Assembly (NCBI GenBank): GCA_964430265.1
Contig: CAYSEI010000001.1
Span: 61,574 to 125,573 of the forward strand
Source: an uncultured Pseudomonadales bacterium
Lineage (GTDB): Bacteria > Patescibacteriota > Microgenomatia > UBA1400 > CAYXSR01
DNA: 64,000 bases
Direction of reading: 5' to 3'
Under the pieces are notes generated by a model that ran no database searches, was not told the DNA's origin, and worked only from the letters and a program-made list of their open reading frames with translations. Shown here in pieces: positions 1,180 to 35,200 of this stretch (positions are counted from its first letter, which is position 1; each line of letters starts with the position of its first letter). Made by a program: the position numbers and the translations under genes.

Positions 1180-1181
1180 AT

Positions 1182-2063
1182 TTATCTCCATAAGCTCATA
1201 CCTGCTAAACGTTCCTGTCTTTTTTTAGTTTTTTCACGCTGTTTTAAAACTTTTCTTTTTCTTTCTAATTTTTTCAGGCGTTGTTCTATTGCATCTGATG
1301 CGTTTTCTAAAGTAGTAATTCTTGATCCCAGATTACCTAGCCGGGATTCATAAATTGTCTGGACAAAAAGTATTGCTGATATCTGTTTTTCAAAAAAAGC
1401 TAATATTTCCTCAAAATCAGGTTCAAACCAGTAGCTTTCTTTTTTTTCAATCTTTTCCTGGTCTTCCTGAACAAGCATTTGATCAGCAGTAATGTCTGTG
1501 TGTACAGCTTTTTGTTTGACAAGGGATTCAAACTTGGCATTAAAAACCTGTACTTTAGCATAAACATTTACATGCTCTATTAATTGTTTAAATCTTTTAT
1601 CATCTATACTAGATTCGTCAATGTCAAAAAAGCGGAATTCCTTATTAAATTCAGGGTTTTGTTCAACTATTTCTTTACCGATCTTGCCAACAACTGCAGC
1701 ATCAGTTTTTTTATTTTTTTGCAAATATGCGTAAAAATTCTGAAAAACCTGTTGTACAATACCGCCGGAGAATCTTTTTGCCGGGCTTAAAAATATTGCC
1801 AGCTCCTGTCCGTGGTTTTTAAACCGGGAGACCTGGGCTTTTTTCTTTTTTCTTTTTTTAAGCTCTTTTAAAAGTTTTTTGTAATAGGAGGCCTGTACAT
1901 CTGTTGACAACTCATGCAAACCTTCTGTGTATGGACGCGCTTTTAAAACTGAGTCACGGGTTTTTTGGATACGCATAACTGATATTTCTTTATAGGCTCT
2001 AACTAAAGAACCTAAAGTTGCCACTGCTTGAGAATCTGCTGTTATTTGTTTTAGTGTTGACAT
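1182..2063 (-). CDS. atpG: F0F1 ATP synthase gamma subunit
   Basis: The 293-aa ORF (MSTLKQITADSQAVATLGSLVRAYKEISVMRIQKTRDS...) lies between atpA and atpD. Its N- and C-terminal helices are typical of a gamma subunit. Confidence 0.85.
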   Translation of the reverse strand: MSTLKQITADSQAVATLGSLVRAYKEISVMRIQKTRDSVLKARPYTEGLHELSTDVQASYYKKLLKELKKRKKKKAQVSRFKNHGQELAIFLSPAKRFSGGIVQQVFQNFYAYLQKNKKTDAAVVGKIGKEIVEQNPEFNKEFRFFDIDESSIDDKRFKQLIEHVNVYAKVQVFNAKFESLVKQKAVHTDITADQMLVQEDQEKIEKKESYWFEPDFEEILAFFEKQISAILFVQTIYESRLGNLGSRITTLENASDAIEQRLKKLERKRKVLKQREKTKKRQERLAGMSLWR

Positions 2064-3481
2064 AATTTTTTAAATGCTTTGTCTAATTTTTTAATTTTTT
2101 CTCTATATTCTTCCCATTTTTTAAGTTCAGCTAGTTTGTCTAATCGCTGTTTTAAACTACTATCTTTTGCATAATGATTAATTATATTTTCCCTGCAATT
2201 ATGGATATTTTCTGTGTTTTCAAAAAAGTTGTTTTGTACTAAAGCAACAATAGCTAATTGAACAGATAATGGCACAACTTCCAAAGTTGCTTGAGAAAGC
2301 ATTTCCCTTAACATTTCTCCCTGCTCAAGTATTTTTCTTGTTTTAGGATTCAACTCTGCGCCAAAATGAGAGAGCTGGTCAATTTTTTGGTATTGGTTCA
2401 TAAAAGCATTTAATTTTTGATTGGCATTGCGTGCCAGCGTTGTTTGGGTTTGTTTACCGATTCTTGTTACTGAAAGGAAAGTATTAATGGCTGGCTGATT
2501 GCCCTGTAAGAAAAGGTTGTAGTCAAATAGTAAGTGGCCGTCAGTTATTGAAATCAGGTTTGAAACAATAAAATCGGTTAAATCATTTTCCGTTGTTTCT
2601 GCAACTGGGAAGCAGGTTATACTACCATTTTGAAAATTACCCGCACGTTCCAGTAAACGTGCGTGTGTGTAAAATATATCTCCGGGATATGAATCTCTTC
2701 CAGGGAATTGTTTTGATAAAAGTGCAGTCTCTCTATAAAATTTTGCATGAGTGCTTAAATCATCTAAAAAAACTAGAACCTCTCTGTTTTGATCGCGGAA
2801 ATATTCAGCCAAAGCCATGGCACTAAAAGGTGTTAAAGATATTAAGCTTGTTGGGTCCTGGGTATTAGTGGCAACAATAATTGTTTGATCAGCAAAACGT
2901 TTCTGGGATAATATTTTATATAACTGCTTAATCTCAGTAATTTTTTTTCCGATTAAAGCATAGACAATAATTGTGTCTTTATCTGACTGTGCTTCTGCAG
3001 CATTTAAAAGAAAGGAAGTTTTGCCTGTTTTACGGTCACCGATAATCAATTCACGCTGTCCTTTGGCAATCGGCAGCATTAAATCAACAATGCTTACTCC
3101 AGTCACAAGCTGTTCTGATTTTGTTTTTCTTGTTTTTAGAGTAGGTGGGCGCAGGTCAATTGTTCTTTTTATATTTTTCTCGATATCTGTTTCTTGAAAA
3201 AGGTTGTTTCCTAAAGGGTCAATGGTTTGTCCGAGAATTTGCTCGGAAAAAGAGATGGTCAGAGTATCTTGGTAGTGGAAGCATTTACTGTTAATTCTTG
3301 GCGCCTGAGAGTCTAGTAGCAGTATCTGGGCACTGTTTTGATTAAATGAAAGCACTTGTCCTTTCTGCTTTTTTTCAAATTCAACCAGTTCACCTACACG
3401 AAGATTGGGCAGGCCTTCAATTTCAACTAAAGAATGTTCAACTTTGTTTACAATGCCGAATTCTTTTATTTGGTTATTCAT
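2051..3481 (-). CDS. atpA: F0F1 ATP synthase alpha subunit
   Basis: The 476-aa ORF has a GDRKTGKTS Walker A motif and the architecture of the alpha/beta family. It sits at the expected operon position. Confidence 0.9.
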   Translation of the reverse strand: MNNQIKEFGIVNKVEHSLVEIEGLPNLRVGELVEFEKKQKGQVLSFNQNSAQILLLDSQAPRINSKCFHYQDTLTISFSEQILGQTIDPLGNNLFQETDIEKNIKRTIDLRPPTLKTRKTKSEQLVTGVSIVDLMLPIAKGQRELIIGDRKTGKTSFLLNAAEAQSDKDTIIVYALIGKKITEIKQLYKILSQKRFADQTIIVATNTQDPTSLISLTPFSAMALAEYFRDQNREVLVFLDDLSTHAKFYRETALLSKQFPGRDSYPGDIFYTHARLLERAGNFQNGSITCFPVAETTENDLTDFIVSNLISITDGHLLFDYNLFLQGNQPAINTFLSVTRIGKQTQTTLARNANQKLNAFMNQYQKIDQLSHFGAELNPKTRKILEQGEMLREMLSQATLEVVPLSVQLAIVALVQNNFFENTENIHNCRENIINHYAKDSSLKQRLDKLAELKKWEEYREKIKKLDKAFKKLCQH

Positions 3482-3839
3482 ATTTTTTAAATTCTTTTTT
3501 TAATGTTAAATCATATTTTTTGCCCAAAAACTCCAGAATACATCCAGGGCAAATATTCTCAGCGTATTCAATTTGTAAAAACAGTTTTTTGTCTAGTTTT
3601 TTTCTTAGCAAACTCACTAATTCTTGTTCTTGATTATCAGTAGGGGAATATGCCAAAAATAGCTTTGCAATTGGCAGCTGCAGTATTTTGTCAATTAATT
3701 GCTGGTATTGTTTGGCTTTATCGGTTTGTTTTGTTTTAGGGTCTTGATAAAGCTTGTTAATTTTGTTTTGCAATTGTCTGATTATTAAGTTGCGCTGATT
3801 TATGCTGGCAGCTTGTTTTAAAACCTGGTCAAGATCCAT
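3474..3839 (-). CDS. atpH: F0F1 ATP synthase delta (OSCP) subunit, short form
   Basis: The 121-aa ORF lies between atpF and atpA. The call rests on operon position and size only. Confidence 0.55.
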   Translation of the reverse strand: MDLDQVLKQAASINQRNLIIRQLQNKINKLYQDPKTKQTDKAKQYQQLIDKILQLPIAKLFLAYSPTDNQEQELVSLLRKKLDKKLFLQIEYAENICPGCILEFLGKKYDLTLKKEFKKYE

Positions 3840-4335
3840 TTTTCTTTTCTCCTAGATGTTTGTTAAGTAACTGTAAAACTAGTTTGTGCTGGTTGTCTGG
3901 TGAAATCTGTTGTTGGAGTTTTTTTCTTGCTACCTGAATGGCAATTGCATCAGCATGTTCATCAATTTCATGGATTTTATCTTTTTTTATTTTTCTTAAT
4001 TGCTGTTCCAATTCTTTTTGAAAAGCAGCAGAGATTTTTTCAATTGTTTTGGGTAAGAGTTCCTTGTTTTCTTGGATATATTTAACGATATTTTCTTTTT
4101 GGGTTTGCAAAATTTCCTGGTGGAGTTTTTTTGTTTCCTCTTTTATTTTCTCAACTTCTTCTTGAACTTTCTTTTGTATTTGCTCTTTTTTCTTTGCTTT
4201 TATTTTTTCTGCGTCTTTTTTTAAATCAACTAGTTGTTTCTTCTTTTGTTTGATTTTTTTCCAGGCTGAAAATATGAGTATTTCAAGGACAACAATCTGA
4301 AAAACTAAAATATTTATTAATATCAAACTATTCAT
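3829..4335 (-). CDS. atpF: F0F1 ATP synthase subunit b
   Basis: The 168-aa ORF has an N-terminal transmembrane helix followed by a long K/E-rich coiled coil. It is directly downstream of the c-like gene. Confidence 0.75.
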   Translation of the reverse strand: MNSLILINILVFQIVVLEILIFSAWKKIKQKKKQLVDLKKDAEKIKAKKKEQIQKKVQEEVEKIKEETKKLHQEILQTQKENIVKYIQENKELLPKTIEKISAAFQKELEQQLRKIKKDKIHEIDEHADAIAIQVARKKLQQQISPDNQHKLVLQLLNKHLGEKKNGS

Positions 4336-4356
4336 TTTTTCCTTTAACTTTTTTAA

Positions 4357-5151
4357 TTAAGGTAAATAAACAATAATATAGGCAGCACCAAGTCCAGCAC
4401 CAACTATTACAAGGTTAATGATCAGATTGAAAATCATGCTAAAAATTATTGAGTTTTTAGATAAAGGATTACGCGCAACTCCTTCAACTCCGTTGCGCAC
4501 TACTTTGCCAAAAGTAAAAAAACTAAAGGAAATACAGCTTAAAACAACCAATCCTGCAATAGTATGGCGAAGGATTTCCTTTGGCTCCTCAATTGCTGCA
4601 ATTGTGCTTAAACTGACCATGTTTAAAAGCCGTTGGCTGATTACTTCTGAGGCAGGAGAATCTTCTCCGTAAGTGAACTTTATGTTTAAGTATACGGGGA
4701 TAGTTGTAGTTTCTTCTTTGCTTTGCAGTGTGTGGTTAGCTTGGGCTGTTCCCAGGGTAAACCCAGTTTTAGTTGCCTTCATTCCAATACCGGTAACACT
4801 TGAGCTGGTAATTCGGTCACCTTTTTCAATTGGCCCGTTTTCTCCAGAAATTAGAACAGGAACCGTTCCTTCAGCCATAACTGGATAGGTTTTTCCTGAT
4901 CCATTGCCGCTGTTTATTTCCAAAGCGGGTTTTTCAACTACCACGCCCATCATATTTTTATCATATGCTTCCTGGCTAAGGAAGTTTTGCGATTCATCTG
5001 CAGAAACAATTGAACCGTATCTGATATTGTCTCCCTGAATTTCCAAGCGGTGGGCAACACCCAGACCTTCATTTGCCGCATGTACAAAGTTTAAAGAAGC
5101 AAAAATAATTGCTAGAGCAATTAATATGGTAGAGGGCAGAGCTTTTTTCAT
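4357..5151 (-). CDS. Atypical ATP synthase c-subunit-like protein. An N-terminal signal/anchor and a soluble domain of about 175 aa are fused to a C-terminal c-subunit hairpin that lacks the conserved carboxylate
   Basis: The C-terminal 70 aa (...GKVVRNGVEGVARNPLSKNSIIFSMIFNLIINLVIVGAGLGAAYIIVYLP) carry the c-subunit loop signature (cf. EGAARQP) and the VGxGLG motif. The hairpin was re-translated by hand from the DNA. One continuous 264-codon ORF has no in-frame stop. Confidence 0.6.
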   Translation of the reverse strand: MKKALPSTILIALAIIFASLNFVHAANEGLGVAHRLEIQGDNIRYGSIVSADESQNFLSQEAYDKNMMGVVVEKPALEINSGNGSGKTYPVMAEGTVPVLISGENGPIEKGDRITSSSVTGIGMKATKTGFTLGTAQANHTLQSKEETTTIPVYLNIKFTYGEDSPASEVISQRLLNMVSLSTIAAIEEPKEILRHTIAGLVVLSCISFSFFTFGKVVRNGVEGVARNPLSKNSIIFSMIFNLIINLVIVGAGLGAAYIIVYLP

Positions 5152-5247
5152 GCTATTTTATATATTAACGTACAAAACCATAATTGTACAAGTTAAATTG
5201 GGTAAATTCTTCTTTACTATCTTTACTGGGATGAATATAATAAATTT

Positions 5248-8200
5248 ATGCGACAACACCTGCCTAAAATAATTGGAGCATTAACAGCTTTTGTGTTTAG
5301 TGCTGCTATCGGGGCTTTCAGTTTCCACATTATACCTGTTTTTAAACAAAGCTATTTAAAAGAAAAACCTCAAGTTGCTGAAAACAATCCTGTTGCTGAA
5401 TCCAGCGGTAGAGTTTTGGCAGCTGAAGACATACAGAACTCACCTAAGTTAAGCATTAACCTGCCAGCTTTTTTTTCTGATACTACTGAATTTCAGGAGG
5501 AAACAACTTTTACCAAAAAAGTTAATTTACAGGATGAAGTTGAGGGGAGTGGAGTAAGGTTGAACCTGGATGATGCAAGCGAGGTTGTCAGCGGCAGTGT
5601 TACAACAGGCACATTGACGGCTGAAAACATTATTTACTCAATTACTGTTGGTGAAGGCTTGTCTATTACTGAAGGGCAGGAGCCTGTGATTACTAACCTG
5701 GATAAAGGCAGTGATCAAAGCATATACAGCACTTTTAAAGTAAACGGAAGTTCTGTTACTGCAGGTTCAAATGAAGATGTTTTTGAGCTTGTTGAAGGTG
5801 ACAACATGAGCTTGTCATTGGACAGTGGTAGTAAAAAAGTTACCTTTAGCTCTTCAGCGCCTTTAATTTGGACATCCAGTGGAGACAACATCTACTACAA
5901 CAGTGGCAATGTAGGAATAAAAAATATAGATCCGCAGACTGCCCTGGATGTAACAGGAACAATAACTGCAGAAGGTTTAAAACTGACAGACGGAGCACAA
6001 GCTGGATATTATTTAAAAACTGACGTTTCGGGCAATGCTTCCTGGGTGAAGATTGGAAGCGAAGATGCACCATGGAGCTTGGATGGATCAACAGTAACTC
6101 TTGATGAATTAAACTACAATGTTGGGATTGGAACCACTAACCCCAATGCTCAGGTTAACATTGTAGCTAATAGTACAGACCAGCAGCAATTAGTTTTGCA
6201 AGGAGTGGCTGGGCAAACTGCAAATGCACTTGAAATACACGATGAGGATGGGAACGCAAATATATCTTTTGACAAGGAGGGTAATGCAAATTTTGCTGGT
6301 ACAATCACTCAGGAAGGATTTGCTCTATCCGGTAACGGTCTTAATTTTACTGGTGATGCAACTAGTGTTTCCTTGGATGCTTCTACACCTGAGCCGGATA
6401 ATCTTTTTAATAACGGCCTTTTGGAAGATGATCTGTCTGAATGGAATTATACAAAAACCAAAAAAGAAAAATTTTCCAATAATACCCTGGAAACAAATTT
6501 GGATAGCTGGGAAACAAATGGAACTCAGGCAAGCGCCTGGTATGGCAGCAGCTGGGAATACCGTAAAAAGATTACTTTTAATAATTCAGACCAGACAGAA
6601 GATTTGTCTGAGTTTCCTGTTTTAATTAAATTGGAGGAAGGCGTAAATATTGCTTATGACAAAATAGCAGCAAATGGAGCAGATATTAGATTTACTGATT
6701 CGGACGGAACAACAGAGTTATCTTATGAAATAGAAGAATGGAATGAGGGTGCCACTAGTTATGTCTGGGTTGAAGTGCCGCAAATAGATGGTGCCTCAGA
6801 TACTGACTATATTTACATGTACTACGGTAATGATGCTGCCTCTAATGGAGAAGATGCAGACGGGGTTTGGAATGCCAATTATGTAGGTGTCTGGCATTTA
6901 AAAGAAGATCCTAGTGGTGCTGAACCACAGATTCAGGATAGTACCGGTAACAACAATGACGGAAGTTCAAGAGGTAGTATGACAAGTGAAGATCAAATGG
7001 AGGGGGAAATAAACGGTAGTATTGATTTTGCTGGGGACGATGATTATCTTACTTTTGGTACAGAAACAGCAAACTTTGATACAGCAGACCCTTTTACATT
7101 TGAAGGCTGGGTAAAAATTGATGCAAGCTCTAACCAGGCAATAATATCAAAAAAGCGTGTTGGAGGTACTCATAATGGTTATAACTTGAATTATGATGGA
7201 AATAATAAGAAGTTCTATTTTCAGTTGGCCAGAGATGATTATTGGAATGCAGAAATTTATGTTAGAGGTTCAACAGAGGTATCTGCAGGGACAGATACTT
7301 GGTATTATGTAGTGGGAACATATGATGGTTCAGGTACTGCAGCAGGCACACAAATATTTGTAAATGGAGACGGGGAGACAGAAGAAATTGTAATTGATGC
7401 AATGACAGGAAGTTTTTCACCTACTTCGTATAATTTTCAGATAAGCGGTCGTTCAGGAGGAAGTTTGCTTTTTGACGGACAAATTGATGAAGTCAGAGTC
7501 TCAAATAATGCACGCTCAGCAGACTGGATTGCTGCCACATACAAGAGTGTGAAAAATACTTTTGTTTCTTACGGGGATGAACAAAGTGCAGGAAGTGGGC
7601 TTGTAATGCATGAAACAGATACAACATATGATTCTAGTTCTGGTTCAGTGGTTATTAATGCAACCGGTGATAACACAAATCTCAGACAAGCAATAAATCT
7701 TATAAGTACAGAAACATTTAACTTGGAAGCTTATGCATATACTGACGGCAGTGAAGTAACTGCTGATGATGTTCAGTTGTATTACAATGATGCAGCAATT
7801 ATTACATCATACACGAATATGGGTTCCGGATGGTACAAGTTGAGTGCGGAGGTTACTGGTGCTAATGCAGACCGGACAGTAGGAGCTTTAGTTAAGCATA
7901 ATGCGCAGGTATATTTGGACAGTTTCAGCTTACAAATCAGTGATACAAGCAACAAAGTAGTGCACGAGACAACTACAACTTATGGTTCTTCATCTGGATC
8001 AGGATTGATTGATGCAATTGGATTGGAGGATTTGGAGTTTAACCAAGAGATTACTGTAGCTGTTAACGGTACACACACTTTTAGTGTTTATGTGTACAAT
8101 AATACGCCCGGGACAATCGGGGGAACAGTGGATAGTTCAGTGGTAGAGCTTAATCATGAAGGATCAAATATTTCTAATATTTCATATACAGATCAGGGAA

Positions 8201-9390
8201 ATGGTTGGTGGAAGGTAGAAGGTTCAAAATCACTTACCACAGGCAGTAATACGTTTGGGGTGAATGTAAAAACAGATAAATCAGTATATATTGATAATCT
8301 GCAGGTGGTGGCAGGCAGGGGAGAGACAAAAACAATTACTATACAGAATACAGGCTCTGGTTTAGCCAAGCTAGTTGTTGAGTCAACAACAACTTTAAAT
8401 ACGGGGTTGGATTCGGAAAATGCTTTGGTTTTAAAAGGAGTGGAAAACCAGCAGGCTGATCTGATGCAGTGGAAGGATTATGAAAACAATATTCTGGGAG
8501 TTATTGATCAAGATGGCAACCTGGGTGTGGGAACTTCGGATCCTGGGTATAAGCTGCAAGTTGGTGAAGCAGGAGACGGAACAGTAGCACGGGCAAATGC
8601 CTGGGAAACTCTTTCTGATGCCAGTTTGAAAACAAACATTGATCAAATATTAGATCCTTTGGGGAAGATTGATGAAATGAGGGGAGTAAGATTTGATTGG
8701 GTATCTACACAAGAAAGTTCAATTGGTTTTATTGCCCAAGAATTAGAAAAAGTGATGCCCGAGGTGGTATCCACGGGAGAAGATGGATATAAATCAATTA
8801 ACTATCAGGTACTAACTGCATTATTAACGGAAGGAATTAAACAGCAACAGCAGGAAATTGAATTTATACAGAAACATTTAGGGTTAAAAACTGATTTTGT
8901 CGTATCATCAACAAGTAATTATAGTGATTTGAATGCAACCAGTTCAGCACAGCTTGATAAATTGATTGTGACTGACCTGGGAGTAACCGGAGAGATAACT
9001 AACGGAGTTGTTAATATAGACGGCTTAGACGGTGAGATAAATGCATTGGGAAGCACACTTAGACTGCAAAGCTTACCCGGTGCGGGCAGTTTGGATGTTT
9101 TTAAGGGAAAAATAGTTTTAAATCCCAATGGTGATATTGAAATAACTGAGGGGGTTTTAAAAGCAAACGATTCAATGCGCGGTAAAGTTGAATTAGAGGA
9201 GGATGTTGAAGGCAACAAAATAGAAGTTGAAAAAGAATGGGAAGAATCTCCTGTAAGTATTAATCTTACTCCGAGCTGGGATACCAATGTTTGGGTGACT
9301 GAATTAAACAAAAACGGGTTTGTAATCAACTTTTCCAAACTTCCTGAAAATGCAGAAGAGAAGCAAATATACTGGACAGCCATCTGGTAA
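5248..9390 (+). CDS. Giant membrane-anchored surface protein with DUF2341-like, LamG/concanavalin-like and tandem CBM-like domains plus a tail-fibre intramolecular chaperone (peptidase S74-like) autoprocessing domain
   Basis: Features seen in the 1380-aa ORF:
- An N-terminal transmembrane helix.
- A YRKKITFNN...DIRFTD...YEIEEW...VWVEVP...YMYYGN block (DUF2341-like).
- A GVWHL...FTFEGWVK region (LamG-like).
- Two domains of about 110 aa each beginning HET(D/T)TTY(D/G)SSSGS.
- TLSDASLKTNIDQILDP...GFIAQELEKVMPEVV...INYQVLTALLTEGIKQQQQEIEFI, the hallmark of the endosialidase/tail-fibre chaperone domain. Confidence 0.75.
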   Translation: MRQHLPKIIGALTAFVFSAAIGAFSFHIIPVFKQSYLKEKPQVAENNPVAESSGRVLAAEDIQNSPKLSINLPAFFSDTTEFQEETTFTKKVNLQDEVEGSGVRLNLDDASEVVSGSVTTGTLTAENIIYSITVGEGLSITEGQEPVITNLDKGSDQSIYSTFKVNGSSVTAGSNEDVFELVEGDNMSLSLDSGSKKVTFSSSAPLIWTSSGDNIYYNSGNVGIKNIDPQTALDVTGTITAEGLKLTDGAQAGYYLKTDVSGNASWVKIGSEDAPWSLDGSTVTLDELNYNVGIGTTNPNAQVNIVANSTDQQQLVLQGVAGQTANALEIHDEDGNANISFDKEGNANFAGTITQEGFALSGNGLNFTGDATSVSLDASTPEPDNLFNNGLLEDDLSEWNYTKTKKEKFSNNTLETNLDSWETNGTQASAWYGSSWEYRKKITFNNSDQTEDLSEFPVLIKLEEGVNIAYDKIAANGADIRFTDSDGTTELSYEIEEWNEGATSYVWVEVPQIDGASDTDYIYMYYGNDAASNGEDADGVWNANYVGVWHLKEDPSGAEPQIQDSTGNNNDGSSRGSMTSEDQMEGEINGSIDFAGDDDYLTFGTETANFDTADPFTFEGWVKIDASSNQAIISKKRVGGTHNGYNLNYDGNNKKFYFQLARDDYWNAEIYVRGSTEVSAGTDTWYYVVGTYDGSGTAAGTQIFVNGDGETEEIVIDAMTGSFSPTSYNFQISGRSGGSLLFDGQIDEVRVSNNARSADWIAATYKSVKNTFVSYGDEQSAGSGLVMHETDTTYDSSSGSVVINATGDNTNLRQAINLISTETFNLEAYAYTDGSEVTADDVQLYYNDAAIITSYTNMGSGWYKLSAEVTGANADRTVGALVKHNAQVYLDSFSLQISDTSNKVVHETTTTYGSSSGSGLIDAIGLEDLEFNQEITVAVNGTHTFSVYVYNNTPGTIGGTVDSSVVELNHEGSNISNISYTDQGNGWWKVEGSKSLTTGSNTFGVNVKTDKSVYIDNLQVVAGRGETKTITIQNTGSGLAKLVVESTTTLNTGLDSENALVLKGVENQQADLMQWKDYENNILGVIDQDGNLGVGTSDPGYKLQVGEAGDGTVARANAWETLSDASLKTNIDQILDPLGKIDEMRGVRFDWVSTQESSIGFIAQELEKVMPEVVSTGEDGYKSINYQVLTALLTEGIKQQQQEIEFIQKHLGLKTDFVVSSTSNYSDLNATSSAQLDKLIVTDLGVTGEITNGVVNIDGLDGEINALGSTLRLQSLPGAGSLDVFKGKIVLNPNGDIEITEGVLKANDSMRGKVELEEDVEGNKIEVEKEWEESPVSINLTPSWDTNVWVTELNKNGFVINFSKLPENAEEKQIYWTAIW
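7600..8310 (+). repeat. Tandem duplication of a domain of about 110 aa within the 1380-aa gene (copy A about 7600-7945, copy B about 7957-8310)
   Basis: The protein segments HETDTTYDSSSGSVVINATGDN...YLDSFSLQI and HETTTTYGSSSGSGLIDAIGLE...YIDNLQV are clearly homologous and look like carbohydrate-binding modules. Confidence 0.6.
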
Positions 9391-9425
9391 TTACTTCAAT
9401 TACCTAAAATTGAAAAAAGTAATCA

Positions 9426-12251
9426 TTGATATATAATGAATTTATGGCGCAAAAATACTCTGCAAAGCAGGTTCTGATTGGCCTTATTATTGCTATTACC
9501 TTCAGTTTGATGCTTCTGCTTGTAGCAGGAGACAGTCAAAAAAATGCCCAAATTGTTCAGGCAGAGGACAATTCATTTACAACAAAAAATGCTCCTTTTA
9601 TAGCTACGTTTGCAAGTGTTGATGACCCGCAAAAAATATCTTTTAAAAAAGAAAATTCAGCAATTTCATTTAAAATACCTGACAAGAGTGTAAAATGGGC
9701 AAAAAAAGGAGACAAGCTAGAAGCAGAGGCAGAAAACGGGAAGACCTATTCATATACGCTTTTAAAAACAGAAAAAGGCACAGCTACTGGTTTAAAAGAA
9801 GAAATAGTTTTAAAAAAACCAATAGAACAAAATGTTTTTGCATTTGATATTGATTTTTCTTTATTAAAAGCAAAAAAGGAAAACAATCTTTGGCACTTTT
9901 ACAACTCAGAAGGGAAAGCCCTTTTCTATATCCCCAAACCTTTTATGGAGGATGCAAACGGGGAAAGAAGTGAAAATATAAAAATAGATATTACACAAGA
10001 TAAGCTAAAAATTACTGCAGATAAAGAATGGCTTTTATCAACGGACAGAAAATATCCAGTCACAATTGATCCGACTTTTAAGCTGACAATCCTCACAGTT
10101 CATTCCCATCCCCAGTCAGGAGATAACTGGGTAGTGGATTTTGAAACTCATGGTAAAGCAGACCTTAAAATAATTCCTGATGATCAGGCAACAATTGAGG
10201 ATATTGATTTTGTTTCCCTTAAATGCGGAAGCAAAAAAATGAATCCAGAGATATTACAAAATGATGTTATTTCCTACAAAAACTGGGAATGTAATCAAAC
10301 AGCGACAGTAACACATCTTGTTAATACAGCAGATCCACATACTCTTAAATTTGATTTTGGTGGAGAAATAAACTATGCCTACAATGCACCAGGAAGTACA
10401 ACATATACTTTTACCGGTGTAACTCAATCAACAAATGACTATTATGCCTATGAAGATTACGGAGCAACAGTATTTTCAAACCAGGATGATACAGGGACAA
10501 GTGAAGCAAGCAATACAGATTATGACAACATAGAGGCAGATGATGGAAATAGATGGGTGACAGAAGAAGCAACAAGTGATGGTGATTATGATTCCCAGCT
10601 ATATAAATTTTATATTGATGAAACAGAATCAACAGTATCCCAGCTTGATTTAAAATGGAACGGCTACGGAGAAACAGAGACAGGATATTCCACCTATTTT
10701 TACATCTGGGATTACAACTCTTCTAACTGGGAACAGCTTGACTCCAATGACTTTACAGCAGCTACTGATGCCGATTTAACCGGAACAATTGATAGCAGTG
10801 TAGGCAATTATATTGACATTGAAGGAGAAGTGACGCTGATGGCAAAAACGGAAAAAGTAGTTCCTTGTCCTGAATTTACAGACTGTACATGCGCTGGTAC
10901 AAGTTATGAGACGGTAAACTGTAGTAATGGAGATACTATCTATGTTGACTGTAATGCAGATAAATGTTGGGCACCAACGCCTTCAGGCTTGTATTCTTAC
11001 GATGACGCAATGGATTATTGCGATAACCTGGATCACGGTGGTATTTCTAATTGGGTCCTTCCAGATAAAGATACTTTAGCCAATCTTTGTAATTCAGATT
11101 CTTGTTCTAGTTACTGTTTTGGAGGAGATGGTTACGACGGTGGTTATTTATCTTCAGATATTAATGGATTACAGATCAATACTGTTTTTTTTGATGGTTG
11201 TATTGAGTATACACAAACAGATCCTTACTTTATTCGCTGTGTCAAGGTTTCAAATTCGCTTTATACTGACTACGTAGAACTCAAAGTCACCTACACTAAA
11301 GATAGTGGGGAAACATGTGAGGCGGATAGTGACTGTACTTCCGGAAACTGTGTTGATGGTTACTGCTGTGATACGGCTTGCGACGGCATCTGTGAAGCTT
11401 GTGATATTTCCGGATCTGAAGGCACTTGTACAAATATAGCAGAGGATACTGATCCGGACAATGAATGTGATTTAAGTTGTGCTAATGGCTGTGCAGACCA
11501 GACAGGGGATTGTAATGGCTCTGGTGCTTGTAAAAAAACATATTGTGCTGAAGGTCAGGCATGTTCAAGCGGCAGCTGTGGAACAGGCAACTATTGCAAT
11601 AGCGGCAACCAGGCATATTGTTCTTGTGAAGGTGCAGGTTGTTATAATGACGGCGGATTTGATTATGTCTGCCAGGGGCAGTGTGACGCTTCAGGCAATT
11701 GTACATACTCTGCAAATTGTTCAACACCGGATGAGGTGCCAAACAAGGTAGGCTTTTCCGGAGGAGTGGGCTTGGAAAATGTGGGATTGGATTATGATAT
11801 GCCTGAACCTTGTGCTGACACTACGATTGATAATTGTTTCTGTGATGGAACGGGATATTGTGAGATTACAGCATCAGGCGATACTGTCTATGTTGACTGC
11901 AACGCAGATAAATGTTGGACACCAACTGCTAGTTCCACTTATACTTGGTCGTCAAACTATAGTGAAGGCAATTGTGTTGGTCAAGGTAGCGATTATGAGG
12001 CCTGTCACTACTGTGATACTTTGTCCTACGGTGGTAAGGATGATTGGTTTCTACCAGGCAGAGATACCTTAGGGGATCTCTGTGATTCTGGTGCCTGTGA
12101 AGGAACTTGTTTCGGTGGTGATGGATTCAGCGAGAGATATTGGTGTTCTCAGGATTGGGATCTTATAGAAGCTGGCGTTGTAGATTTTTCTGGTTGTTTA
12201 CGTCAGACCGACGATAAGCACAACGACAACTATGTGCGTTGCGTCCGCTAG
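9426..12251 (+). CDS. Secreted cysteine-rich giant protein with two copies of a DUF1566-like (Lcl C-terminal-like) module
   Basis: The 941-aa ORF has an N-terminal signal/anchor (LIGLIIAITFSLMLLLVAG) and a Cys-rich linker (CTSGNCVDGYCCDTACDGICEAC...). A module with YVDCNADKCW...W(V/F)LP..DTL..LC...CFGGDG...RCV motifs occurs twice. Confidence 0.65.
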   Translation: MIYNEFMAQKYSAKQVLIGLIIAITFSLMLLLVAGDSQKNAQIVQAEDNSFTTKNAPFIATFASVDDPQKISFKKENSAISFKIPDKSVKWAKKGDKLEAEAENGKTYSYTLLKTEKGTATGLKEEIVLKKPIEQNVFAFDIDFSLLKAKKENNLWHFYNSEGKALFYIPKPFMEDANGERSENIKIDITQDKLKITADKEWLLSTDRKYPVTIDPTFKLTILTVHSHPQSGDNWVVDFETHGKADLKIIPDDQATIEDIDFVSLKCGSKKMNPEILQNDVISYKNWECNQTATVTHLVNTADPHTLKFDFGGEINYAYNAPGSTTYTFTGVTQSTNDYYAYEDYGATVFSNQDDTGTSEASNTDYDNIEADDGNRWVTEEATSDGDYDSQLYKFYIDETESTVSQLDLKWNGYGETETGYSTYFYIWDYNSSNWEQLDSNDFTAATDADLTGTIDSSVGNYIDIEGEVTLMAKTEKVVPCPEFTDCTCAGTSYETVNCSNGDTIYVDCNADKCWAPTPSGLYSYDDAMDYCDNLDHGGISNWVLPDKDTLANLCNSDSCSSYCFGGDGYDGGYLSSDINGLQINTVFFDGCIEYTQTDPYFIRCVKVSNSLYTDYVELKVTYTKDSGETCEADSDCTSGNCVDGYCCDTACDGICEACDISGSEGTCTNIAEDTDPDNECDLSCANGCADQTGDCNGSGACKKTYCAEGQACSSGSCGTGNYCNSGNQAYCSCEGAGCYNDGGFDYVCQGQCDASGNCTYSANCSTPDEVPNKVGFSGGVGLENVGLDYDMPEPCADTTIDNCFCDGTGYCEITASGDTVYVDCNADKCWTPTASSTYTWSSNYSEGNCVGQGSDYEACHYCDTLSYGGKDDWFLPGRDTLGDLCDSGACEGTCFGGDGFSERYWCSQDWDLIEAGVVDFSGCLRQTDDKHNDNYVRCVR
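10857..12250 (+). repeat. Intragenic duplication (copy 1 about 10857-11250, copy 2 about 11798-12250)
   Basis: One nucleotide stretch is nearly identical in both copies: gatact(a/g)tctatgttgactg(t/c)aa(t/c)gcagataaatgttgg. The protein-level similarity extends about 130 aa. Confidence 0.7.
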
Positions 12252-12293
12252 GAGAAAAAACTAGAATTTAATTATTTAAAAAATTTAGAATTT

Positions 12294-12315
12294 CCCGCCG
12301 ATAGGCGGGATTTTT
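12294..12315 (+). terminator. Intrinsic terminator downstream of the 941-aa gene
   Basis: A cccgcc-gata-ggcggg hairpin is followed by atttttt. Confidence 0.7.
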
Positions 12316-23250: not shown

Positions 23251-25818
23251 TTGAGCAAAACTCTAAACCTAGTTAGAAATATCTTAATTCTAAATTTTAG
23301 TTTATTTTTTCTTTTTTGTCCTAAGTCGTGCAGAGCTAATGAAACTGTTTTTTTTGAAGAAAATTTTAATTCTTCAACTTCTGACTTTATGTTTTCTAGT
23401 AAGTGGGATGTTTATTCTAATTTGGGTACCATATATATTAATGAAGGTAATATAAAATTAGATTCGTTTTCTTATTCATTTCCATTTGTTAAAACAAAAA
23501 TTAATCCATTTCCAGAAGAAGATTTTGTTTTAGAAATGAAGCTTAAATATTTAAGATCAGCTAATTGGGGAACAGGTATTTCTATTGGTACAGAGGCACC
23601 ATATAATGGAATTAGCCAAGAAGAGCTTTTAGATCTTGGAAATGATGTACAAATGTTTTTTATTTGGCAAGATGATCATAGAGATTTCCATGTTTCCTCA
23701 AGAAATTGTTATCAGTGTAACCCAGAAGTAACTGACTATCTCAATTGGGAGGAATCAGTAAATGAAGATTTATTTTTGAACATTATGTACATTGATGGAT
23801 ACTATGAAGTTATTTTGAATGATGTTTCCTACTTCAGAAGTTCACAAGCTGTAGTAAAAAAGCCATCTGTTATTTGGTTTGGAAATCCAATTTCGATAAC
23901 TACTGATGGGTCTCCATGGACAAGCTTTGAAATAGACTATATTAGAGTCAAAACTTCTGGATATACGCATCCAGTAATTCTTCTTCCCGGACATGGTGGG
24001 TCTTGGTGTTGGGATGGTTTAATACTGGGAAAAGAATGTAATGAGTGGAAGCAGACACCATTTGTTCATGTTTATGATAATTTTAGAAGTTCAATGTTAA
24101 ATGCAGGATATACAGAGGGAGTAGACTATTATGAATTCTATTATGATTGGAGGGATCATTTGGATAATCTTGCTGCAGATTTGGATACATATATAGATAG
24201 TACTGTTTTAAATGGAAGTCAGGATAATACAAAAGTTAAGCTTGTTGGGCATTCAATGGGAGGATTGGTATCTCGCACATATGCACAAAATTATGGAACT
24301 GAAAAGCTAGAAAAAGTTGTAACCGTAGGTTCTCCCCATAAAGGCGCATTAGCGGCCTACAGAGGATGGGAAGGAGGAGAAACGACTGAATATCCTTCGT
24401 GGCGCAATGTAGCTTTTGAGATTTTAGTGCAAATTCATAAAGATTTTTTTGAAAATCGTATGAAAGCAGTGCGTGAACTTGCTCCGTCCACAAAAGAAAT
24501 GATTCCAATATTTGATTTTCTTAAAGAAAATGACGGAACTATAAAAAAATCGGATTCTCTGATTCATACTAATAATTTCCTAATCAATCTTCAGGAAAGT
24601 ATGGATGGAACTTTAAAAAGTATTATGGCTACAGTCAATGGAAGGGGAGAGAATTCTGTTGAATATTATGTAATTAAGGATAGAAATGTCTTAGATAAAC
24701 TTATGGGTAGATGGGAAGATGGAAGAGTTGAAACTCGGGAAATGACAGATGAGGGTGACGGAACTGTTTTAACAAAAGGAGCGGAAATAGAGGTAGTTAA
24801 TACTGAAACTTTAGATATGGGTCATACAGAATTAATTGAAACATATGAAGGATTGGAGAAGATATTTAATGCTTTAAACATTAATGTTACTCCTAATATA
24901 GTGAGTGTGCCAAGTCCAATTGAAGATGCTTTAGTATTTATCATCCGCTCACCAGCAAAATTAAGAATAACTGCATCTGATGGAGAACAAGCAGGCTATG
25001 GAATAGATAATCCAATTTCTGGAAGTGAATATTATGAAGAAGAGGGTATTGTAATAATTCATCAATTGCAGGAAGGTGATTATAAAGTGGAAGTGATTCC
25101 CACTGGGAGCGGAGAATACCACTTGGATATTGGCAAAATTAAACAAGAAATAAGTGATTGGAAGACATTTAAAGGACAGATTGATGATTTAGAACAAAAA
25201 GATGAATATAATTTCGTATTTTCGTCGGGTAGTGAAGAGGTTGTGCTTGACACCCCCAAAGATGGTGTAAATTATGTTCAATTATCAATAATTAAACTTA
25301 ATCATCTTGAAAATTATATTCGCAATAACGTTGAAGAACCCCAAAAAGACCAGTTTATATGGCATATTAATATAATGTTAGAATATTTACAGGCGCTTAA
25401 AGAAAATGAAATTGAGTACAAATATACATACAATACCATGAAACAATCTTTTTTACTACGAAGAAAACTCGAAAATATAGAAAATGAGCAAAATCGTGTT
25501 TATTGTAAAAATCAAGTTGATGAAGTTATCAAATACTTAAAATATGTGTTGATCAATCGACTCCAACAAAACATATCAAACCCTAATATTCAGAAAATTG
25601 ATAATTTTTATTATGCAAATAATAATACAATTGATGATTTAGAAGATGATTTGGAAATTGAAGCAGAAAAAGGACCTAATAATGTATTAGCAAGCTTATA
25701 TAAATCAATTTTGAAAAGTAAGGAAACGGCAGAGAATACAGAAAGCTTTGAAAAATGGGCGGAGATTTTTTCTAATCGCTTCTACCTCTGGAGTCTTTTG
25801 AGTTTATTAAGTAATTAA
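23251..25818 (+). CDS. Secreted multidomain protein with an alpha/beta-hydrolase lipase/esterase domain
   Basis: It has a signal peptide, a nucleophile elbow (GHSMGG) in VGHSMGGLVSRTYAQNYG, and an upstream VILLPGHGGSW oxyanion region. N- and C-terminal domains of unknown function flank the hydrolase core. Confidence 0.7.
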   Translation: MSKTLNLVRNILILNFSLFFLFCPKSCRANETVFFEENFNSSTSDFMFSSKWDVYSNLGTIYINEGNIKLDSFSYSFPFVKTKINPFPEEDFVLEMKLKYLRSANWGTGISIGTEAPYNGISQEELLDLGNDVQMFFIWQDDHRDFHVSSRNCYQCNPEVTDYLNWEESVNEDLFLNIMYIDGYYEVILNDVSYFRSSQAVVKKPSVIWFGNPISITTDGSPWTSFEIDYIRVKTSGYTHPVILLPGHGGSWCWDGLILGKECNEWKQTPFVHVYDNFRSSMLNAGYTEGVDYYEFYYDWRDHLDNLAADLDTYIDSTVLNGSQDNTKVKLVGHSMGGLVSRTYAQNYGTEKLEKVVTVGSPHKGALAAYRGWEGGETTEYPSWRNVAFEILVQIHKDFFENRMKAVRELAPSTKEMIPIFDFLKENDGTIKKSDSLIHTNNFLINLQESMDGTLKSIMATVNGRGENSVEYYVIKDRNVLDKLMGRWEDGRVETREMTDEGDGTVLTKGAEIEVVNTETLDMGHTELIETYEGLEKIFNALNINVTPNIVSVPSPIEDALVFIIRSPAKLRITASDGEQAGYGIDNPISGSEYYEEEGIVIIHQLQEGDYKVEVIPTGSGEYHLDIGKIKQEISDWKTFKGQIDDLEQKDEYNFVFSSGSEEVVLDTPKDGVNYVQLSIIKLNHLENYIRNNVEEPQKDQFIWHINIMLEYLQALKENEIEYKYTYNTMKQSFLLRRKLENIENEQNRVYCKNQVDEVIKYLKYVLINRLQQNISNPNIQKIDNFYYANNNTIDDLEDDLEIEAEKGPNNVLASLYKSILKSKETAENTESFEKWAEIFSNRFYLWSLLSLLSN

Positions 25819-32276: not shown

Positions 32277-35200
32277 ATGAAAACCTGGCAAAAACTAGTC
32301 AGTAGTATATTTTTATTGGTTGTATTGTTTCTGGTCTTTCCCAAAGAAGCAGATGCATACTTTGGCTATAATGTTCACAGTTTAGCAAAAGAAAATCCGG
32401 AAAACATTTCCCGTATTTTAAATTACCTTGCAAGCAATTGTGAAACCACAATTGTACGATTATGGGGTTATGAATCAACATTTGGCATTCAGGGATATGA
32501 TAATTTGCAAAAAGTACTTGATGCAGCTCCCTCAAATATTAAATTCATAGTTGCGCTTGAAGATTTTCCTTATGGACCTCCTGAAAGTAATCCGGGAGCC
32601 TGGTATTCAAACGGGTATAGAACCAGGTATCGAGATTATGTAGCGCGGATGCTTGACAGGTACGGCAACTCGGAGAAGATATTGATTTGGGAAATGGTTA
32701 ATGAACCGCACTGTAAGGGCGATTCTTCTTGTCTTTCTTCTCTTGTTGACTTTATAAATGACATGAGTAATTTAATGGCATCCAAAACATCAGCATACAT
32801 TTCCCCTGGGTTAATGACCTCGCAAATCCCATTAGATACTTATGAATTTATAACAAATTTGCAAAATATTACAGCCAATTCCTGCCACTATTACAATGAA
32901 TCAAATACCAAAGGGAGTTGTCTTGATGCAGCAAATATTGTTAAGGGAGCGGGAAAGTTTTACTATATTGGTGAAGCAGGATACAAAGCAAGTGGTTCAG
33001 GAGGAAGTGGAAGCTGTACAAGTGCGGACTGTACGAATGTTTGTGGTCTGCAGCCATTGCAGCAAAGATATGATCAAGTTCAAGCTGACAGAAGTCAATT
33101 AACGGGAACAGGAGCAGATGCTTTTATACTCTGGCAATTTTCTCCGCAAAGAAATCCTTTACTGATATGTGATCGTTTTTCAGTTTTTCCTGAAGATCCA
33201 TTGTGTGGAGGAGAAGGTTTGGATTTAATACCCACGGATGTTGGCGAGGACATGGACGAGATTCTGGATGTTAATCAAGAAACAGCTTACGGTCGAAGGG
33301 TCTACGGAAGGGGTATTCCCTGTGGTCCTTTGCGCAGCTGGCCAGCGACTGGGGAAGAAGAAGTACAAACATATTATGATATTTCTGAATGGGAAAACCA
33401 ATACCAAGCGGCAAACGGATTTCCCCAGCATCCGTATGATGCAATGGATTTTGTTCCTTATGATTGGAGTCCGGAAAGACCATTTGTTGGAGACAACTGT
33501 TATCCTTTGGAATATACTACTAAAACAGACTACAATATTGAATATTGTGCAGAACAGCCGGTGGGAACGGATAAAATAAAATATTTTATCCAGCCGCCTT
33601 CAGAGATAATTGATTATCTTGAAGTAGCAGATTTACACATGACTAGTTTACAAATTCCCTTTTTAGGAATAAGCAGAGCTTCATCAAACTATATGTGGGA
33701 CAAAGAAGACAGAATGCAAAACTTTTTAACCAGCTACTTACGCGGTGAATTATATTTTGATAGAACTTGGGTTGATTCAGAAGACGTTACACCGGAAATG
33801 TTGGAAAGGGAAACAGGAGTTATCAGAAAACTTTATCCAAGAGATTGGATGTATAGTGGTGATATTGCTAACAAGTGGAAAGAGAAAGATATGATAATTG
33901 ACAGACTTTTAAAAGCTACATTTCAAGAATACGAAAGTGAGCTAGAAGGACCAATACACGACTATCCATTAATTTACAAAAATGCCAGCGGGGATTTTTT
34001 GTCTGAAGATGATTTTAAAGAAACTTTTCCTTCCGGACTTCCGGACAGAAAATCATATGAAGATGTCTGGCCGGTAAGAATAAGCCAACTGGTCTGTCAG
34101 AATTCAAATATTTTGGTTGATTATGGATATGATCAGCATCCTGCTTGTCAGCAAGGAACTAATTGGCTAGCTGATTCTGGATCACATGAAGATGAAGGAC
34201 TTTTGTATCAAGAGCTCTGGCCTAAATATTTTCCAATTGCCTCAAAAGAGGATGCCAAAGTTATTGTTGACTTTAGTATGCCTGATGATAATGAAGCGAG
34301 AAATATTAATGATGTTCCAATCAAAAACCAAAGATTTTTTGATATGAGCTTAAATGAGCAGAAACAAATACTTGAACAATATAACGGTCAATATGTGACT
34401 AGGGGTGGAGATGGTTTAATGCGGCATAGGGTAGAAGAAATTTTTGTTCCGTATATAGCTGAAATGGAAGATTTAAGCGACTGGGTTTTTAAAACAGCAA
34501 TATCTGAAGAAAGACAAAAAGAAGCCAGAGATAATGAATATGCCGACTCAAGTATTGATAATGTTAAGCTTCCTAGTGACGACGAATGCAAGCTGGATGA
34601 AGCAAGAGGCGGGATAGCTGATCCAGTTGCAGTTAATTATCAAAATTATTTACACGACACAAATGATCCAACAGTTCCAATTCGCAGGGAAGATATGTGG
34701 GTTTGGGTATTAAATGAGGTTGAAGCAGACAAAAGTACAAAAGAACCGACATATTGTGCTCCTGATCCTTGTGATCCGACGTTTCAAGACTGCAGTAATG
34801 ATTGTGTCAGTCCGAACAAAGAAACTGAAAAATCAAAAGGAAAGATTGAAACAAAGTTTCCTTTACTGAATACTGTAGCTTCAAGGCTAATAGGGGAAAA
34901 ATATGGAGCCTTTAATATATTTTTTACAGATGAGCAATTAAATACAATAAAAACAAAAATTAGTGAAAAAGTAGATAACAAAGTAAATCCTTTGGAACTG
35001 CCGGCAGAAGGTAAATCAAAATTTGACTGGGTAGAGCAAAGTGGAATAAGTACTAAAAGTGATGGGAAAATGTGTGATGAATATTGTGAAGGAAACAGAG
35101 ATGTAAAATCAGTAGACAGCAGTGGGAAAGAAGTTGATTTCTATTTTCCTTATGTAGGCTCTTTACAAATTTTCCGCCAGCTGATTTCTAGGCAGCTTCT

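Follow-up and report, generated by a model that had tools for sequence, protein, structure and literature searches.

The question raised by this locus is why the intramolecular chaperone of phage tail fibres should be encoded within a bacterial protein with a membrane anchor, and what such a protein might do. In the window (the whole 64 kb stretch of DNA analysed), the gene product is, as read from sequence, a predicted membrane-anchored, phage-tail-fibre-like surface protein combining domains of sugar-binding type with a folding module predicted to cleave itself. Its family, large and hitherto undescribed, is found in ultra-small (CPR) bacteria, and the members terminate in a conserved lectin-like knob. 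The features of the gene and its neighbour are as follows.

4357..5151, minus strand: neighbour X, 264 aa, divergently transcribed; signal peptide, domain like the body of the G2-type chaperone slot, C-terminal two-helix hairpin
5248..9390, plus strand: complete fibre gene, 1380 aa plus stop codon, ATG start (from the list of open reading frames)
5269..5343, plus strand: N-terminal signal-anchor/transmembrane helix, aa 8-32, following a basic MRQHLPK stretch (Kyte-Doolittle scan)
5344..6528, plus strand: conserved N-terminal module and fibre shaft, aa 33-427 (BLASTP, phmmer, shared motifs)
6529..7596, plus strand: cargo cassette, aa 428-783, DUF2341 plus Laminin_G_3/ConA-like lectin (Pfam)
7597..7941, plus strand: CBM-like jelly-roll module 1, aa 784-898 (internal repeat, module HMM)
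7951..8313, plus strand: CBM-like jelly-roll module 2, aa 902-1022 (internal repeat, module HMM)
8314..8613, plus strand: stalk ahead of the predicted cleavage site, aa 1023-1122, presumed triple beta-helix
8614..8886, plus strand: Peptidase_S74/ICA intramolecular chaperone, aa 1123-1213 (Pfam, PHROG, fold)
8614-8616, plus strand: nucleophile Ser1123 of the SDASLK motif
8629-8631, plus strand: Lys1128 of the Ser/Lys dyad, in the same motif
aa ~1186-1211, plus strand: terminal helix of S74, the coiled-coil-forming helix of the ICA fold
8887..9171, plus strand: first part of the C-terminal module, aa 1214-1308, beta-rich (conservation across clusters)
9172..9387, plus strand: terminal beta-sandwich knob, H-type-lectin-like, aa 1309-1380, ending '...IYWTAIW'

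The 1380-aa membrane-anchored protein proposed at 5248-9390 in the initial annotation corresponds exactly to the open reading frame and has one N-terminal transmembrane segment (aa 8-32), the sole hydrophobic segment of a protein without any Cys residue; 'giant', as it was called there, overstates what is a large protein. It is on record as P0001 (NCBI; 405.5 kb contig) and forms a singleton cluster. The same N-terminal anchor is found in relatives, some of which, including P0073 and P0118, carry a cytoplasmic MerR HTH domain ahead of it. The adjoining module (aa 33-427) has no match in a Pfam search; BLASTP relates it to P0200, P0228, P0185 and P0223 (E 7e-21 to 2e-32) and phmmer to numerous S74 fibre proteins, and the motifs 'VLAAE', 'INLPAFF' and repeated 'GNVGIGTTNP'-type sequences are common to the relatives.

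The cargo cassette contains the DUF2341-like and LamG domains expected from the earlier reading, both significant in a Pfam HMM search: DUF2341 (PF10102; aa 476-540; E 9.7e-15, 55.2 bits vs a gathering score of 23.4) and Laminin_G_3/ConA-like lectin (PF13385; aa 596-762; E 2.1e-20, profile positions 2-151 of 151). These and the Peptidase_S74 match all exceed the curated cut-offs. Taken alone, the cassette resembles proteins of Saccharibacteria, Planctomycetota, Thermoplasmatota and others (33-58% identity). A Vgb_lyase beta-propeller or FG-GAP/BNR occupies the same position in relatives, and stand-alone DUF2341-LamG genes adjoin fibre genes in two loci (L016 and L019). The tandem CBM-like domains, also anticipated, are two modules forming an internal repeat (E 2e-15; module HMM match 2.4e-65), present in three copies in relatives. 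Both are modelled with confidence as CBM-type jelly-rolls and superimpose on CBMs of known structure (e.g. CBM22/35/36/6/4). By sequence they match no CBM family (no Pfam match at E<0.03), and the best match of the module profile among PDB sequences (E 0.016) is a non-CBM protein.

Identity to relatives is 39% over aa 790-1105, and PHROG tail-fibre profiles extend over the stalk, which is presumably a triple beta-helix, the monomer model being of low confidence there. Immediately after the stalk lies Peptidase_S74 (PF13884; aa 1123-1174; E 4.8e-13, 49.6 bits vs a cut-off of 22, profile positions 1-57 of 58), so that the chaperone signature placed at nt about 8570-8880 is borne out: the quoted segment spans nt 8608-8871 and SDASLK begins at aa 1123 (nt 8614). 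Eight PHROG families (seven tail, tail-fibre or baseplate, one of unknown function; best E 1e-26) match within aa ~684-1213, all stopping at about aa 1203-1213, and the fold of the S74 region agrees with solved ICA domains, including the C-terminal helix that forms a trimeric coiled coil. The conserved Ser/Lys dyad, whose absence would have spoken against the assignment and was looked for, is invariant in 40/40 aligned relatives. Where a C-terminal extension follows S74, Ser is kept in 31/31 and Lys in 32/32. The predicted scissile bond is Leu1122|Ser1123, and the dyad spacing of Ser+5=Lys (S-D-x-x-x-K; here S1123-D-A-S-L-K1128) is that of endoNF (S911/K916), MyRF (S587/K592) and T5 (S1264/K1269) (PMC8326128, PMC4690869). 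An Arg at +3, present in 33 of the 40 S74 relatives, is replaced by Ser1126 here. It is relaxed in the subfamily with a C-terminal extension (16/31), and the equivalent MyRF mutant, R590A, still cleaves (PMC8326128). The domain matches and the conserved dyad are far beyond chance.

S74 is not at the extreme C-terminus, unlike the phage arrangement, and is internal as in MyRF, with 167 aa following it (about 170 in the initial annotation). This tail is conserved and reaches the last residue in nearly all matches listed, from 305 representative clusters. Its first part (aa 1214-1308), of low pLDDT when modelled as a monomer, has the consensus 'DLGVTG..G...IDGL.G.I..L...L.LQ....G..D...GK...' with invariant Gly/Gln residues, while the last ~70 aa are modelled with the beta-sandwich fold of an H-type lectin or fibre-tip knob, resembling the receptor-binding tips of pyocin and phage fibres. 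Pfam H_lectin (PF09458) is matched by 11/27 family members (best E 5.8e-4), and the knob of the window protein itself has no match to it at E<=0.1. The tail thus appears, from its modelled fold, to be an H-type-lectin-like module that is conserved and strictly C-terminal, which complicates a simple picture in which the chaperone is shed and the fibre remains. It would be odd to discard a conserved lectin-like knob resembling a receptor tip, and this counts against a reading in which cleavage frees the knob from the fibre.

Among 67 long proteins with the terminal module, 21 have S74 just upstream of it, 43 have a Peptidase_G2-like slot there, three have neither and none has both. In the G2-type slot segments the 'GAD.AE' motif is invariant, and 11/24 match Peptidase_G2. 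The window protein has the family's defining parts (transmembrane anchor, shared N-terminal module, S74 slot and terminal module at the exact C-terminus). S74, described initially as oddly 'embedded' in a single protein, instead fills a defined slot in a modular family, interchangeable with a Peptidase_G2-type chaperone. Since two unrelated self-cleaving chaperones occupy one position, chaperone-plus-cleavage has arguably been selected. The closest relatives share the N-terminal module, CBM pair, stalk and knob, with cargo and chaperone swapped (a β-propeller replaces DUF2341–LamG). We propose that the conserved pieces (the N-terminal module, and chaperone slot plus knob) are assembly machinery and that the variable cargo sets specificity.

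Housekeeping genes nearby encode ATP synthase, L1, NusG, Mur ligase, MreB, PBP2 and topoisomerase I, as well as tRNAs, and genes for envelope and glycan functions (glycosyltransferases, a PMT-like protein, a flippase, a Wzy-like protein) surround the fibre gene. Every named relative, whether of AtpA or of the fibre, is from Patescibacteria (Woesebacteria, Levybacteria, Saccharimonadales, Dojkabacteria), in keeping with the CPR origin first assumed. The fibre gene adjoins the F-ATPase operon in 6/9 distinct loci, with both chaperone types represented, and between the two sits a membrane protein of ~265 aa, X, whose orthologues adjoin fibre genes in L012, L013, L015, L017, L018 and L019. One domain of X is homologous to the body of the G2-type slot in fibre relatives (local HMM E 3.9e-30; BLASTP match to P0200 aa 1178-1253, 42% identity). 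Its C-terminal hairpin resembles the F-ATPase c subunit (ATP-synt_C match sub-threshold, E 0.0024) and is without the ion-binding carboxylate, and X lies where the c-subunit gene would be expected. A conserved place beside the ATP synthase operon could mean a housekeeping role in the envelope, which counts against a role in host attachment.

We consider it probable that the gene encodes a self-processing, very probably homotrimeric, type-II membrane-anchored fibre adhesin on the patescibacterial (CPR) cell surface, with the layout of a phage tail fibre. Beyond the observed domain identities and folds, catalytic residues, architecture, mutually exclusive S74/G2 slot and synteny, we infer that the protein trimerises, is cleaved, binds glycans and attaches to a host in an episymbiotic lifestyle, and what becomes of its C-terminal piece, as follows. 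After Sec export the chain would be retained in the membrane by the helix of aa 8-32; the ICA/S74 domain (aa 1123-1213, including the terminal coiled-coil helix), probably assisted by the trimer-prone knob, would register three chains at their C-termini and so template folding of the upstream stalk and shaft. In a correct trimer the Ser1123-Lys1128 dyad would then cut Leu1122|Ser1123, freeing a C-terminal fragment of ~258 aa (chaperone plus lectin-like knob) from an anchored fibre of 1122 aa. In phages, ICA domains function solely in trimeric form and come off once cleavage has occurred, which unmasks a binding tip (PMC8326128; PMC4690869). The mature fibre would present, near its distal end, a swappable ligand-binding head (the DUF2341-LamG cassette and two CBM-type jelly-rolls), most likely binding glycans on another cell or surface.

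It is possible, if rather unlikely, that the H-type-lectin-like knob is instead the functional distal tip (an adhesin or a partner dock), S74 serving to trimerise and fold the fibre, with the knob held non-covalently after cleavage or its detachment regulated upon target binding. The H_lectin matches in the family and the exact C-terminal position in nearly all members among the matches listed are consistent with this, as are CofB, whose trimeric H-type lectin domain at the pilus tip binds a partner peptide (PMC6048534), and MyRF, whose internal ICA domain cleaves for release rather than disposal (PMC8326128). However, receptor-binding tips are normally variable, whereas here the knob is conserved and the internal cargo varies. 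The catalytic residues kept in both chaperone types also imply that the knob probably loses its covalent attachment, and the chaperones of T5 and endoNF come away once cleaved (PMC4690869). That the fibre is a true tail fibre, part or remnant of a prophage, tailocin or extracellular contractile injection system, is effectively refuted, although phage and eCIS fibres typically carry S74 and tail-fibre and baseplate PHROG families match over aa ~684-1213. A membrane anchor lies at the N-terminus of the protein, phage, sheath, tube and baseplate genes are all lacking from the 64 kb and from related loci, and synteny with a housekeeping operon is kept across genomes. A tblastn search of 50,697 phage genomes did not find the terminal module, and no close relative came up in IMG/VR. 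The initial view of a cellular rather than a phage protein is supported by its chromosomal housekeeping neighbours.

A constitutive envelope structure (e.g. a wall-spanning or S-layer-associated spacer, or a glycan organiser) tied to the ATP-synthase/X locus, with no adhesin for host attachment, seems improbable. The operon-X-fibre layout kept across loci with both chaperone types argues for it, as do the surrounding envelope and glycan genes and the existence of X as a separate protein bearing a domain that G2-type fibres hold internally. Synteny alone, however, does not show a functional link, and rapid turnover of lectin-like cargo is the signature of proteins facing changing external ligands. 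It is a long shot that F-ATPase operon, X and fibre form one CPR-specific surface apparatus, in which X would display its slot-body domain on the cell exterior, a membrane ring of X would dock or organise the fibres, and the cleaved chaperone-plus-knob, rather than being waste, would make contact with X or the target cell. Taken to its extreme, this reading would, if true, link the fibre mechanically or energetically to the rotary ATPase.

The reading that we prefer, a self-processing trimeric fibre, has several counterparts among known systems. Large cellular proteins with S74 are already known and routinely annotated as 'tail fiber domain-containing protein', and MyRF provides a case of an ICA domain placed internally (PMC8326128); the C-terminal knob module, S74/G2 slot exchange, cargo swapping and F-ATPase-X-fibre synteny are new here. 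In the literature library searched, papers naming Peptidase_S74, judged by their titles, deal with phages, other viruses, eCIS or unrelated topics, none with CPR. Phage ICA domains (endosialidase endoNF/K1F, T5 pb1, GA-1 gp12; MEROPS S74, PF13884) share the family, Ser+5 Lys dyad, fold, terminal coiled-coil helix and position directly after the stalk. They stand at the extreme C-terminus of virion parts, whereas the window protein is membrane-anchored and chromosomal, with 167 conserved aa beyond S74. In MyRF (myelin regulatory factor) the transmembrane segment is C-terminal to ICA and the portion set free from the N-terminal side acts as a transcription factor in the cytoplasm, while here it is N-terminal, the remainder would be extracellular and there is no DNA-binding domain. 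A MyRF-like membrane-bound transcription factor was rejected, as the window protein starts with the transmembrane helix and has neither an HTH nor a second such helix. The NCBI 'tail fiber domain-containing' proteins (Bdellovibrio, Bacteriovoracaceae, Flavobacteriia and others) are likewise large and chromosomal, and combine fibre repeats with S74 near the C-terminus; in most, no more than ~60 aa follow S74, and the conserved terminal module and DUF2341-LamG-CBM head are missing. The phi29-type pre-neck appendage auto-chaperone (MEROPS G2, PF11962) likewise helps trimeric fibres to fold and cleaves itself. It fills this slot in 43/67 family members and is absent from the window protein, only the slot 'body' being present, in the separate gene X. 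H-type lectins (Helix pomatia agglutinin, discoidin I/II, SLL-2; CofB/TcpB minor-pilin tips) are a trimer-forming family of small beta-sandwiches placed, like the knob, at a distal fibre end; the knob sequence of the window protein is below every Pfam threshold. The large DUF2341/FhaB-containing proteins of Patescibacteria are likewise CPR surface proteins with DUF2341-LamG cargo and have been proposed as adhesins in host interaction (PMC11809585); the S74/G2 chaperone slot, terminal module and atp-X-fibre synteny, undescribed there, set the present family apart.

The open reading frame of the fibre protein lies where the initial annotation placed it (5248..9390, + strand, ATG start, 1380 aa), and the three Pfam domains proposed for it all scored well above curated thresholds:

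aa 476-540, + strand, DUF2341 (Pfam E 9.7e-15)
aa 596-762, + strand, Laminin_G_3 (Pfam E 2.1e-20)
aa 1123-1174, + strand, Peptidase_S74 (Pfam E 4.8e-13, from profile position 1)

NCBIfam gave no match to the protein. Eight PHROG families match it (best E 1e-26), seven of them tail, tail-fibre or baseplate and one of function not known, and all these matches stop at aa ~1203-1213, the end of the phage profiles themselves. The protein forms a singleton cluster, with an identical protein on record at NCBI, on a 405.5 kb contig. An antisense ORF (8919..9383, − strand, 154 aa) wholly within the fibre gene is most likely a shadow ORF, not a gene.

The peptide quoted as the S74 signature is present (SDASLK, from aa 1123, nt 8614), and the proposed Ser/Lys dyad was borne out, Ser1123 and Lys1128 being invariant across the 40 aligned S74 regions, accompanied by Asp1124 (38/40) and Asn1130 (32/40). 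The same Ser+5=Lys spacing occurs in endoNF (S911/K916) and MyRF (S587/K592) (PMC8326128) and in T5 pb1 (S1264/K1269; PMC4690869). At +3, where 33 of the 40 S74 relatives have Arg, the fibre protein has Ser1126. This was rejected as a sign of an inactive S74 domain, because the subfamily with a C-terminal extension tolerates other residues there (Arg kept in just 16/31) and the MyRF R590A mutant retains cleavage (PMC8326128). The helix at aa 1186-1211 is the counterpart of the coiled coil driving trimerisation of this intramolecular chaperone (ICA) domain (PMC8326128).

The further ~170 aa noted beyond S74 in the initial annotation proved to be a conserved C-terminal module (aa 1214-1380; terminal module). 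Searched alone with a word-indexed method this module gave zero matches, and exhaustive HMMER was required. At E<=1e-3 this recovered 305 representative clusters, 121 of them at <=1e-10, in proteins of up to 4708 aa. With clustering at 50% identity, the family comprises no fewer than 305 clusters. Nearly all matches listed extend to the final residue of the protein concerned. By tblastn the module occurs in none of 50,697 phage genomes, aa 1100-1380 of the fibre have no close relative in IMG/VR, and the module's profile matched nothing significant among PDB sequences. Taken individually, 11 of 27 sequences of the family match Pfam H_lectin, with a best E of 5.8e-4, and the sequence from the window does not; the H-type-lectin-like part is the last ~70 aa (knob). 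H-type lectin domains are trimeric, and CofB has one at the pilus tip, where it binds a partner peptide (PMC6048534).

The closest relatives (P0228, P0185, P0223 and P0200) have in common with the window protein the N-terminal module (aa 22-425), the two tandem jelly-roll, CBM-like modules with the stalk (aa 790-1105; 39% identity) and the terminal module. In place of DUF2341-LamG these relatives have a Vgb_lyase beta-propeller, and in place of S74 a Peptidase_G2-matching region; in another relative (P0117) the cargo is FG-GAP/BNR. Peptidase_G2 is the phi29-type self-cleaving auto-chaperone. In a census with local HMMs of 67 proteins of >=700 aa bearing the terminal module, the chaperone slot was S74 in 21, G2-type in 43, both in none and neither in three, and S74, where present, always lay 0-250 aa upstream of the terminal module. 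Peptidase_G2 was matched by 11 of 24 slot segments (best E 1.5e-10), and the motif 'GAD.AE' is invariant in the G2-type alignment, its D-x-x-E spacing presumably fitting the phi29 gp12 cleavage residues. The catalytic Ser/Lys dyad is kept in S74 members having the terminal module. That two unrelated self-cleaving chaperones share one slot, each with its catalytic residues kept, argues that what selection maintains is folding together with cleavage immediately before the knob.

Among the matches, the combination DUF2341-LamG-CBM-S74 is unique to the window protein and is one product of ordinary cassette shuffling. When the full protein was compared with genome contigs, only the DUF2341-LamG cassette was matched, in unrelated taxa. 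The cassette alone (aa ~428-807, window 6529..7668) matches Saccharibacteria, Planctomycetota, Deltaproteobacteria and Thermoplasmatota archaea at 33-58% identity, the best outside match being to a Thermoplasmatota archaeon MAG (L007 8001-9348; 58% over the best segment). This stretch behaves as a mobile cassette, and its distribution suggests spread across domains of life. Whereas DUF2341-LamG is fused into the fibre in the window, in two other loci the same modules form a gene of their own, a separate 1.7-kaa DUF2341 plus multi-LamG protein directly downstream of the fibre gene (L016 8296-13551; L019 11503-16647). The profile of the CBM-like modules found nothing significant among PDB sequences.

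Genes resembling Avd (PF05635, 23S_rRNA_IVP/bAvd) were found directly 3′ of two related fibre genes (P0034 and P0073):

L010 12808-13179 and 15422-15799, Avd-like genes
L011 9674-10045, Avd-like gene
L015 12276-12800, Avd-like gene

bAvd are accessory proteins of diversity-generating retroelements (DGR). No DGR-type template/variable repeat involving the fibre gene was found within window 1-20000.

A single hydrophobic segment (aa 8-32), preceded by basic MRQHLPK, is present in the fibre protein. Lipoprotein anchoring is excluded because the protein contains no Cys. Its C-terminal end (...IYWTAIW) does not suggest sortase anchoring, nor do any Pfam matches point to a YadA-type anchor. In some relatives (P0073, L015 6001-12273; P0118; P0070; P0084; P0085) the membrane anchor is preceded by one or two cytoplasmic DNA-binding domains of the MerR/HTH_17 type, which supports an uncleaved N-terminal anchor in the family. 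Such relatives unite a cytoplasmic HTH domain with a giant self-cleaving fibre outside the cell in a single polypeptide, which could constitute a transmembrane signalling arrangement.

With moderate confidence we favour a self-processing, anchored trimeric fibre with a swappable lectin-like head. The chain would be exported by Sec and held by its N-terminal anchor; three chains would align with one another at the ICA/S74 domain, probably with help from the knob; and stalk and shaft would fold afterwards, from the C-terminus towards the N-terminus. Ser1123/Lys1128 in the assembled trimer would then cut Leu1122|Ser1123, leaving an anchored 1122-aa fibre showing the head. The resulting 258-aa fragment (chaperone plus knob) may be disposed of or serve assembly, in line with a knob that is conserved while the cargo is variable, or it may have a role at the tip, in line with the knob's resemblance to a fibre tip or lectin and its position at the exact C-terminus.

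The window is ordinary chromosome, encoding F-ATPase gamma and alpha, L1, NusG, a Mur ligase, glycosyltransferases, GlmS, MreB, PBP2, topoisomerase I, NrdD, FTHFS and four tRNAs. Phage, tailocin or eCIS genes are absent from the 64 kb, and a prophage or eCIS origin of the fibre gene was rejected on this genomic context. Named relatives of AtpA belong to the 'Patescibacteria group' and Woesebacteria (just ~45% identity) and those of the fibre to Levybacteria, Saccharimonadales and Dojkabacteria; since both sets are CPR, a CPR origin of the window is well supported by sequence comparison. Downstream of the fibre gene, a 941-aa protein (9426..12251, + strand) combines an N-terminal anchor with a GH114-associated domain, Cys-rich stretches and a C-terminal Lcl_C/DUF1566 domain (aa 831-941). 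Within this gene a 50-nt stretch is directly repeated at 90% identity (10929-10978 and 11877-11926), suggesting that a segment was duplicated. The fibre gene and this downstream gene may share a transcript, as no terminator-like site with >5 stem pairs was found on the + strand from 9390 to 12293. Further along the window, a 1180-aa protein (32277..35819, + strand) with a marginal GH5 cellulase match (23.1 bits vs the 23.5 cut-off) and an 855-aa protein (23251..25818, + strand) with an alpha/beta-hydrolase (PGAP1/LCAT-like) domain are located among glycosyltransferase, flippase and Wzy-like genes, making the region rich in envelope and glycan functions.

Upstream, atp gamma and alpha are followed by a delta-like gene (121 aa), a b-like gene (168 aa) and X (together 1182..5151), and then comes the divergent fibre gene (5248..9390). 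This atp operon-X-fibre layout recurs in L013/14, L015, L017, L018 and L019, with both S74-type and G2-type fibres; the fibre gene adjoins the F-type ATP synthase operon in six of the nine distinct loci examined. X also lies directly before the fibre gene in L012; the flanks of L010/11 and L016 lack it. Copies of X include:

window 4357..5151, − strand, X (264 aa)
L012 2781-3677, X orthologue
L013 1-285, X orthologue
L015 3866-4738, X orthologue
L017 4559-5446, X orthologue
L018 5901-6749, X orthologue
L019 3328-4113, X orthologue

X begins with a signal peptide, continues with a homologue of the G2-type slot body (E 3.9e-30; 42% identical to P0200 aa 1178-1253) and ends in a two-helix hairpin. 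The extracellular domain has sub-threshold Pfam matches to XM1_gp53_minor_capsid and Phage_cement_2. X takes the place expected for the F-ATPase c-subunit gene, and these loci showed no other ORF resembling a c subunit. Its hairpin carries a 'G.E/D.A.GRNPLA'-type (RNP) loop (ARNPLS in the window copy) and matches ATP-synt_C weakly, below threshold (E 0.0024); helix 2 has Asp/Glu in none of eight copies. The conserved linkage to the atp operon via an unusual, c-subunit-like X bears on the organisation of envelope and energy metabolism in minimal CPR cells.

Attachment to host cells is the presumed way of life of CPR/Patescibacteria, and to our knowledge very few of their attachment structures other than type IV pili have been defined. 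An episymbiotic lifestyle is presumed here from what is known of the group. The locus points to a widespread family of membrane-anchored fibres reusing phage tail-fibre assembly logic, in which either of two self-cleaving chaperones is followed by a conserved lectin-like knob and ligand-binding heads are exchanged, providing a candidate set of adhesins and concrete, testable candidates for CPR host specificity. S74 domains in large cellular proteins are already known, as are an internal ICA domain, in MyRF (PMC8326128), and DUF2341 in large CPR proteins (PMC11809585). New, as far as the searched literature goes, are a conserved terminal module that follows the chaperone, the mutual exclusion of S74 and G2 in one slot, an architecture with swapped cargo and the atp-X-fibre synteny. 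The fibre would represent a third setting of ICA self-cleavage besides those in phage fibres and in eukaryotic MyRF, neither of which has its topology.
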